Position numbers and translations under genes: made by a program. Below the pieces are notes generated by a model, which saw only the letters and a list, made by a program, of their open reading frames with translations, did not search any database and was not told where the DNA came from. A DNA stretch of 8,624 nt from a virus (Monodnaviria; Loebvirae; Hofneiviricota; Faserviricetes; Tubulavirales; Inoviridae): the IMG/VR virus record IMGVR_UViG_2541047910_000001. One strand, 5' to 3'. Within the stretch, counting starts at the first letter, position 1, and each line of letters opens with the position of its first letter. Positions 6,261 through 6,431 of this stretch are shown piece after piece.

Positions 6261-6431
6261 AAGTAGTCACACCCATCAAAATATGTGTCAATAGTCATTT
6301 GTGAGCAGATTGAATGGTCACAATGTAATATGCTCAGATCTGACAGTCAATACATTTGCAATGTTTAAATTGTCAGAAATGAGCATCAAATCTAACTATT
6401 GAAAAACCACTGTTAAGATGGAGCCAAGTAG
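6261..6431. promoter_or_regulatory. Divergent promoter/operator region between rep and regulator genes
   Basis: 171-bp AT-rich intergenic region between divergent genes; direct repeats GTCAATA..CATTTG (6287-6300, 6346-6357); 10-bp perfect palindrome tcagatctga (6334-6343); TGAGCA at 6302 and 6380; GGAG (6420-6423) 8 nt before the ATG at 6432. Confidence 0.45.

Follow-up and report, generated by a model that had tools for sequence, protein, structure and literature searches.

The short intergenic region from which the replication gene (rep) and the gene for a 148-aa helix-turn-helix regulator diverge in a CUS-1/YpfPhi-type filamentous prophage is probably an immunity, or operator-promoter, region, in which one strong rep promoter would be accompanied by three operators for dimers of the regulator. 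Within these 171 bp the 14-bp pseudo-palindrome GTCA-N4-TGAGCA, built on the dyad core TCA-N4-TGA, occurs three times; for these sites we also observed their enrichment, their conservation among relatives, their place relative to a conserved promoter, and the change of their sequence together with the recognition helix of the regulator. This co-variation between helix and putative operator, found by comparing related loci, is the strongest evidence for the operators.

The window, meaning the whole 8,624-nt stretch of DNA that was analysed, is by its sequence a filamentous prophage of the CUS-1/YpfPhi type inserted beside dif. Its minus strand carries rep, annotated as a “phage/plasmid replication protein, II/X family” in E. 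coli D8, followed by genes for a G5P-like single-strand binding protein, coat proteins, a Zot-like assembly protein and a secretin. Diverging from rep on the plus strand are the HTH_3 regulator gene and then cargo genes, among them a gene (7468-8262) whose 264-aa product contains a restriction endonuclease domain of DpnII/MboI type (Pfam, 6.9e-59; PADLOC Aga_Helical-REase, 1.3e-34), after which comes the gene for a DUF6953 protein. A 1-kb query covering positions 5900-6900 was 100% identical to E. coli D8 and was found at an identity of at least 99% in 98 complete E. coli genomes, UTI89 included; megablast of a phage database with the window DNA gave no match. In E. coli D8 the prophage is flanked by a perfect dif site on one side and by hipA on the other. 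At positions 2209-2236 of locus L001, just beyond the secretin end of the prophage, stands a perfect 28-bp E. coli dif site, with hipBA at the opposite end. This placement is compatible with XerCD-mediated insertion, as for CUS-1, YpfPhi and CTXphi.

Y. pestis NCTC5923 encodes, in two tandem copies, a protein 100% identical to the regulator, and this identity, together with the dif-side locus, places the prophage in the CUS-1/YpfPhi family and equates the regulator with YPO2273. Regulator, control region, gene order and dif insertion all agree with membership in this family: YpfPhi of Y. pestis and CUS-1 of E. coli O18:K1:H7 have an identical regulator protein and the same gene order, and the window shows no difference from them at the level of the control region. 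One base (6301, in the spacer of O1) separates the Y. pestis control region from that of the window. Resident YpfPhi gives partial protection against superinfection, and YPO2273, the proposed repressor, was described in a 2014 review as an RstR homologue whose “regulatory role awaits experimental demonstration” (PMC4266046). In the literature searched, that review included, we found no binding, footprint, transcript-start or reporter results for YPO2273 or the 148-aa regulator.

Table 1. Features of the divergent control region and its flanking genes, in window coordinates
Feature	Position	Strand	Basis and remarks
rep, gene II/X-type replication initiator, first gene of leftward phage operon	5208..6260	-	Pfam Phage_CRI 1.2e-73 and G2P_X_C 3.6e-34; profile matched from residue 1
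Divergent control region, 171 bp, 34.5% G+C, analogous to CTXphi ig-2	6261..6431		ORF layout, composition
Conserved element TGTCAATAG, holding first GTCAATA and abutting O1	6286..6294		Comparison of relatives
O1 (putative operator), GTCATTTGTGAGCA	6294..6307	+	Exact pattern match; centre at about +15 of predicted rep transcript
Predicted rep promoter -10, TACATT	6322..6327	-	Consensus scan; 17-bp spacer
57-bp imperfect palindrome formed by inverted O2 and O3	6330..6386		Repeat search
O2 (putative operator), GTCAGATCTGAGCA on minus strand, inverted	6331..6344	-	Exact pattern match; contains TCAGATCTGA and GATC
Predicted rep promoter -35, TTGACT	6345..6350	-	Consensus scan; invariant in nine close variants
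O3 (putative operator), GTCAGAAATGAGCA	6372..6385	+	Exact pattern match; about -63 from predicted rep start, 47 bp upstream of regulator ATG
Extended -10-like TGTTAAGAT, then Shine-Dalgarno-like GGAG 8 nt before ATG	6411..6423	+	Candidate regulator promoter or ribosome site
148-aa regulator, N-terminal Cro/cI-type HTH and two C-terminal helices	6432..6878	+	Pfam HTH_3 1.6e-09; phrog_3557 4e-74
Possible weak fourth site, GGCAACAATGAGCA	6435..6448	+	One-mismatch match; direct repeat with O3; codons 2-6 of regulator gene

A sequence-only reading of this DNA had singled out a GTCAATA..CATTTG motif repeated about 60 bp apart, a recurring TGAGCA, and a perfect 10-bp palindrome. Both words of the first motif are indeed present twice: GTCAATA occupies 6287-6293 and 6346-6352, 59 bp apart and its sole two copies in the 8624-bp window, and CATTTG occupies 6296-6301 and 6353-6358. 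The gap between them is 2 nt in one copy and 0 in the other, so that they do not form a rigid unit. TGAGCA recurs as described, at 6302 and 6380, with its complement TGCTCA at 6331 and a fourth copy at 6443 within the regulator gene. The palindrome, TCAGATCTGA, occurs once (6334-6343) and is perfect. What unites these elements is the pattern GTCA-N4-TGAGCA. TGAGCA/TGCTCA is its outer half-site, the first CATTTG falls within O1, and TCAGATCTGA is the core of the middle site, O2, owing its symmetry to a variable 4-nt centre that happens there to be GATC. The half-sites are unequal (GTCA versus GCTCA), and because of this asymmetry the exact contacted bases are uncertain. The pattern TCANNNNTGAGC has three matches in the 8.6-kb window, all in the intergenic region, where 0.23 were expected, and GTCANNNNTGAGCA has the same three exact matches. 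Three 27-nt units around the sites, at 6281-6307 (+), 6331-6357 (-) and 6359-6385 (+), resemble each other beyond what shuffled sequence provides: the best set of three reaches 56 pairwise matches, whereas 300 dinucleotide shuffles gave 43.2 +/- 1.9 and never more than 50.

The sites are spaced at 37 and 41 bp, which puts O1 and O3 78 bp apart, and the centre of the candidate fourth site, GGCAACAATGAGCA, lies 63 bp from O3. With low confidence, GGCAACAATGAGCA may be either a weak autoregulatory site or a codon-constrained coincidence. The centre of O2 (6337-6340) is also a Dam site, GATC within AGATCT; a GATC occurs in the rep-promoter spacer of type-B and type-C regions as well, and it is lost in L036, L037 and L039.

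For the predicted rep promoter a start near 6315 is expected, giving a leader of about 55 nt, and the minus strand reads TTGACT-GTCAGATCTGAGCA-TAT-TACATT, so that O2 makes up 14 of the 17 spacer bases and directly abuts the -35. In 11 of 11 diverged intergenic regions the best sigma-70 match was on the rep strand and in the same place, with scores of 13.1-14.7 against at most 11.3 for any other candidate. Relative to the regulator ATG, the hexamers stand at -80/-82 (-35) and -103/-105 (-10), and in the shorter type-C region at -67 and -90. The sole variant base of the -10, at 6325 in L009, yields TATATT, which is nearer consensus.

The proposal that GTCAATA is itself operator sequence did not hold up. 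The second copy (6346) is the complement of the -35 TTGACT plus one base, and the first (6287) lies in the conserved element TGTCAATAG, which does not follow regulator specificity. At the equivalent place in L003, L006, L010, L012, L014, L016 and L042 we compared this element and found that TGTCAA(T/G/C)(A/G)G accompanies each of the three immunity types and either Rep family; it lies about +20 to +33 in the predicted rep leader, 25 to 57 nt from the rep ATG. A second rep promoter starting from TTGACA (6291-6286) was considered and rejected: no relative has an acceptable -10 for it, and the start would fall inside the rep ATG. The leader also contains a 13-codon upstream open reading frame (6298-6257, minus strand; peptide MTIDTYFDGCDYL) whose ATG lies within O1. 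Its TGA stop overlaps the rep start (ATGA), an overlap that suggests translational coupling, and the frame is kept in L009 with a GTG start. A conserved leader peptide was rejected as improbable, since the variation has no third-codon bias (3 of 12 variable positions).

A gap-free alignment was possible for nine distinct control-region variants, taken from E. coli, from Y. pestis and from viral contigs, whose regulators share 85-100% identity. Variable columns number 2 of 30 in the half-sites, 6 of 12 in the 4-nt centres and 54 of 129 in the rest; half-sites thus vary far less than everything else (2/30 versus 60/141; Fisher p = 1e-4). Both half-sites of O1 are invariant in eight of the nine variants, while spacer positions 6298 and 6301 vary; those of O3 are invariant throughout, with variation at spacer positions 6376 and 6379. 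In O2, spacer bases 6337-6338 vary in L036 and L039, and the L009 version is a perfect palindrome, GGTCAGATCTGACC. The expectation that the motifs would be conserved in related phages was therefore borne out for the half-sites, which recur in other genera, and failed for the second CATTTG and the exact palindromy of TCAGATCTGA. These two losses, and the readiness with which short words recur in low-complexity DNA, are what one would expect if the motifs were functionless chance repeats in an A+T-rich spacer, an idea whose likelihood we regard as close to negligible since the shuffle tests, the conservation footprint and the recurrence in other genera contradict it.

A repeat search returned O2 and O3 as a 27-nt inverted repeat (6330-6356 versus 6360-6386, 78% complementary). 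Filamentous phages use single-strand hairpins as minus-strand origins, packaging signals or folded recombination sites, and the O2/O3 pair might be such a hairpin in packaged single-stranded DNA instead of a pair of duplex protein-binding sites. The phage-sense strand of 6325-6391 does fold into a 19-pair hairpin of -13.1 kcal/mol (z = -4.2; none of 200 shuffles was as stable), and the whole control region folds with z = -2.6. We nevertheless judge this unlikely. Across seven distinct sequences, none of the 19 stem pairs changes on both sides, a weak test given that the stem bases are mostly invariant; all nine changed cells are unpaired, and in L009 and L040 changes that nothing compensates disrupt the inner helix. 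O2 is missing from more distant relatives that have the same regulator, the identical sequence at O1 lacks a partner arm, and the invariant bases of the stem are the very bases of the predicted half-sites.

To relate the sites to the protein that would read them, we compared 21 loci, taking relatives of the regulator with their upstream DNA. Regulators whose recognition helix begins ISVSTL were found in E. coli, Yersinia, Aeromonas, Vibrio and metagenomic phages; in 3010 bp upstream of them TCA-N4-TGA occurs 29 times, against 1.84 expected from the flanks (p = 9e-25), and ACA-N4-TGT once. Upstream of the INVRTL group, ACA-N4-TGT occurs six times (p = 5e-8), with GACA-N4-TGTC twice at each locus, at -141 and -60 from the ATG, and upstream of the INIGTL group it occurs nine times (p = 1e-10), three at each; within the 21 loci TCA-N4-TGA was never found upstream of an INVRTL or INIGTL regulator. 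What changes is the sequence; the positions are kept, near -140 and -60 relative to the regulator ATG, or roughly +15 to +20 and -62 relative to the rep start. Every ISVSTLVRI locus has an O1-equivalent site at -137/-140 from the regulator ATG, and in distant relatives the O3 position holds a fully symmetric ATGCTCA-N4-TGAGCAT. O2 is confined to the E. coli/Yersinia clade. Its absence from more distant type-A relatives implies that repression there would proceed through the flanking sites alone, so that the occlusion step proposed below would be clade-specific.

The same comparisons separate the sites from the replication gene. Locus L003 is 96.9% identical to the window in rep, and its similarity stops exactly at the rep ATG, the DNA identity being 51.5% in the control region and 54.5% in the regulator gene (40% for the protein). 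Locus L002 shows 87.7% identity in rep, 96.5% in the control region and 93.7% in the regulator gene, with different structural genes. The Aeromonas phage L014 has a Rep_trans/RstB replication module, yet its regulator has the ISVSTL helix, and the sites recur there in unchanged positions. Taken together, these rep and control-region identities indicate that control region and regulator gene move as one immunity module, and the pairing in L014 implies that this module crosses replication-module families and genera. That pairing, of a CTXphi-like replication module with a CUS-1/YpfPhi-type regulator and operators, lies at positions 100-2947 of a contig related to Aeromonas veronii. Replication initiators such as the Ff gene II protein bind repeats near their nick site, and the repeats here adjoin rep; it is nonetheless highly improbable that they are Rep-binding iterons at a plus-strand origin, for the E. 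coli phages L003, of type C, and L006, of type B, with rep 93-97% identical, have none of these sites, and L014, whose Rep_trans-type initiator is unrelated, has them at the same positions.

Host proteins or Dam methylation might also be the primary users of the repeats. According to the 2014 review, citing Cathelyn 2006, the putative promoter region of YPO2274, the rep homologue of Y. pestis, is bound by RovA, and loss of RovA raises phage gene transcription (PMC4266046). With RovA reported on this promoter region, an A+T-rich sequence, and a GATC at the centre of O2, sites for RovA/SlyA, for LexA or for Dam deserve consideration. We hold it very unlikely that such host functions are the main purpose of the repeats: a host-factor site would not change with the recognition helix of a phage regulator within one host species, and the GATC is lost in the close relatives L036/L037 and L039. 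A search for the LexA core CTG-N10-CAG found none in 6261-6431, its two matches in the window lying in coding DNA at chance frequency. Host factors, RovA included, may act in addition to the phage protein.

Beyond the phages, a regulator homologue of 122-141 aa is encoded on plasmids of about 41 kb with TrbL and resolvase genes (L017, L018, H55-H60), which are very common in E. coli and Salmonella. Its recognition helix is identical, and the DNA identity is 93-97% over the 135 nt coding for the HTH (window 6471-6605), a likeness that points to a recent plasmid-phage exchange. Within 2.5 kb on either side of the 122-aa plasmid homologue, whose recognition helix is the same, we found no TCA-N4-TGAGC. 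At positions 2309-6361 of L004, from E. coli ETEC-2264 (NZ_CP023349), tandem units of rep, a type-C regulator gene and a truncated DNA-binding protein gene form an array resembling the RS1 satellite arrays beside CTXphi.

The regulator has a Cro/cI-type helix-turn-helix domain. In addition to its HTH_3 match it matches Pfam Phage_CI_repr (4.4e-04), and a Pfam search found no peptidase domain in it. In an AlphaFold model the HTH (residues 12-73) is made of five helices and is confidently predicted, the two long C-terminal helices less so; the recognition helix, SVSTLVRIA, spans approximately residues 38-46 (39-46 in the model). A sequence search found no close solved structure. By fold comparison the modelled HTH resembles 434 Cro, the SinR N-domain, C.AhdI and DdrO, superposing on 434 Cro at 1.4-1.6 A over 64 residues with 31-33% identity, and from this likeness dimer binding to 14-bp dyads is expected. 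Resemblance to 434 Cro/repressor and other small Cro/cI-type dimers extends to the sites, since in both cases 14-bp dyads, variable at the centre and conserved in their outer bases, occur three times around divergent promoters. They differ in that the half-sites here are unequal, in that the sites are 37 and 41 bp apart rather than three adjacent sites, and in that the C-terminal part of the protein consists of two long helices, a SinR-like layout, rather than the 434 repressor C-domain.

Expression of the regulator gene is less clearly marked than that of rep. The best rightward promoter candidates in the 11 regions scanned score only 6.6-7.4. TTGTCA(6370)-18-AACTAT, GTGAGC(6301)-17-TGTAAT and TGTTAAGAT (6411-6419) were each tried as the regulator promoter, and none was both strong and conserved. 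A TGnTA(A/G)(G/A)AT block is kept at -18 in type-A regions with weak promoter scores; used as a -10, TGnTAAGAT (6411-6419) would give a nearly leaderless message, which conflicts with the GGAG at 6420-6423. If the regulator controls its own gene, the sign may be negative or positive. Just past the regulator stop, a G+C-rich inverted repeat, ACGTGCAGT ... ACTGCACGT, followed by a T-rich run (about 6909-6940), was seen by eye and is probably the terminator of the regulator transcript; a terminator scan did not report it because its 9-nt loop exceeds the limit of the scan.

From these observations we infer regulator binding, repression, cooperativity and autoregulation, according to the following model. 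Dimers of the regulator would occupy O1, O2 and O3, and a dimer at O2, within the promoter spacer, should exclude RNA polymerase from the rep promoter. O1 (about +15) and O3 (about -63) flank the promoter, and binding to them would probably be cooperative or involve looping through the C-terminal helical domain; a higher-order assembly through these helices is inferred by analogy with the SinR-like layout and with RstR, which has been reported to bind as a dimer of dimers. O3, perhaps with the weak site over the start of the regulator gene, probably feeds back on regulator expression, and autoregulation through O3 and possibly the fourth site is plausible. The outcome would be repression of rep, and hence of phage replication, and superinfection immunity specific to the type of regulator and operator. 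The earlier suggestion that the motifs are operators of the adjacent HTH repressor at the rep promoter thus gains from conservation, promoter position and helix co-variation, once the repeated words are replaced by the true unit, GTCA-N4-TGAGCA in three copies.

How far does this arrangement correspond to the CTXphi lysogeny switch, with which the sequence-only reading had compared it? CTXphi has divergent repressor and replication genes with a 138-bp region and three RstR sites between them (PMC4762005), and its rstR and ig-2 are exchanged together as allele-specific immunity types while the replication gene is conserved (PMC11509585). The prophage described here is similar in its compact divergent region, in an HTH repressor without a protease domain, in the exchange of regulator and control region as a type-specific module (seen here by sequence in L002 and L003), in its position beside a perfect dif site and in the occurrence of tandem rep-regulator arrays. 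The functional analogy therefore stands; a closer relationship does not. A tblastn search of a phage collection with the regulator (E <= 1e-3), 32 Affertcholeramvirus (CTXphi) records included, found no similarity to RstR in any of those records, its matches being confined to phages of Vibrio cyclitrophicus and a single Lactococcus phage. Rep belongs to the Phage_CRI/gene II type (Phage_CRI and G2P_X_C, with Rep_trans below threshold) and not RstA/Rep_trans. LexA co-represses the CTXphi replication promoter from a site in the control region, and the LexA core is absent from the control region here. RstR operators, reportedly described by Kimsey and Waldor in 2004, are said to be extended, and the sites here are short 14-bp dyads. 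The CTXphi comparison is thus an analogy, with the region as a functional counterpart of ig-2, and not one of family membership. FpsR of SW1 and Pf4r of Pf4 are likewise phage-encoded HTH repressors acting on the promoter of a replication gene, and no sequence relationship to them was seen. SW1 has a 621-bp region with long overlapping 5' UTRs, and its FpsR does not bind its own promoter (PMC4762005).

As a regulatory device this would be an ordinary Cro/cI repressor-operator lysogeny switch: the proposed operators and promoter are a new annotation, not a new system, and no new principle is involved. The gain lies in exact coordinates for the putative operators and promoter, in predicted specificity residues and bases, and in an apparently simple recognition rule over three immunity types. 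One extension of that rule we put forward tentatively, as having nearly as good a chance of being right as of being wrong: that dif-site filamentous prophages of E. coli and Yersinia form at least three heteroimmune types on one regulator scaffold, in which one or two residues at the start of the recognition helix switch operator specificity while operator positions around the rep promoter stay fixed. On this reading, Ser38 to Asn would pair with a T to A change in the outer core base (TCA..TGA to ACA..TGT), and Arg40 would pair with a strict flanking G (GACA..TGTC). If this is true, one could swap specificity by design, and the immunity of a strain, Y. pestis included, to superinfection by these phages would be predictable from its regulator type. 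This prophage family occurs in uropathogenic and neonatal-meningitis E. coli (UTI89) and in pandemic Y. pestis and has been linked to infection fitness, and E. coli, in the comparisons made here, carries several immunity types that are exchanged as modules, as CTXphi does.
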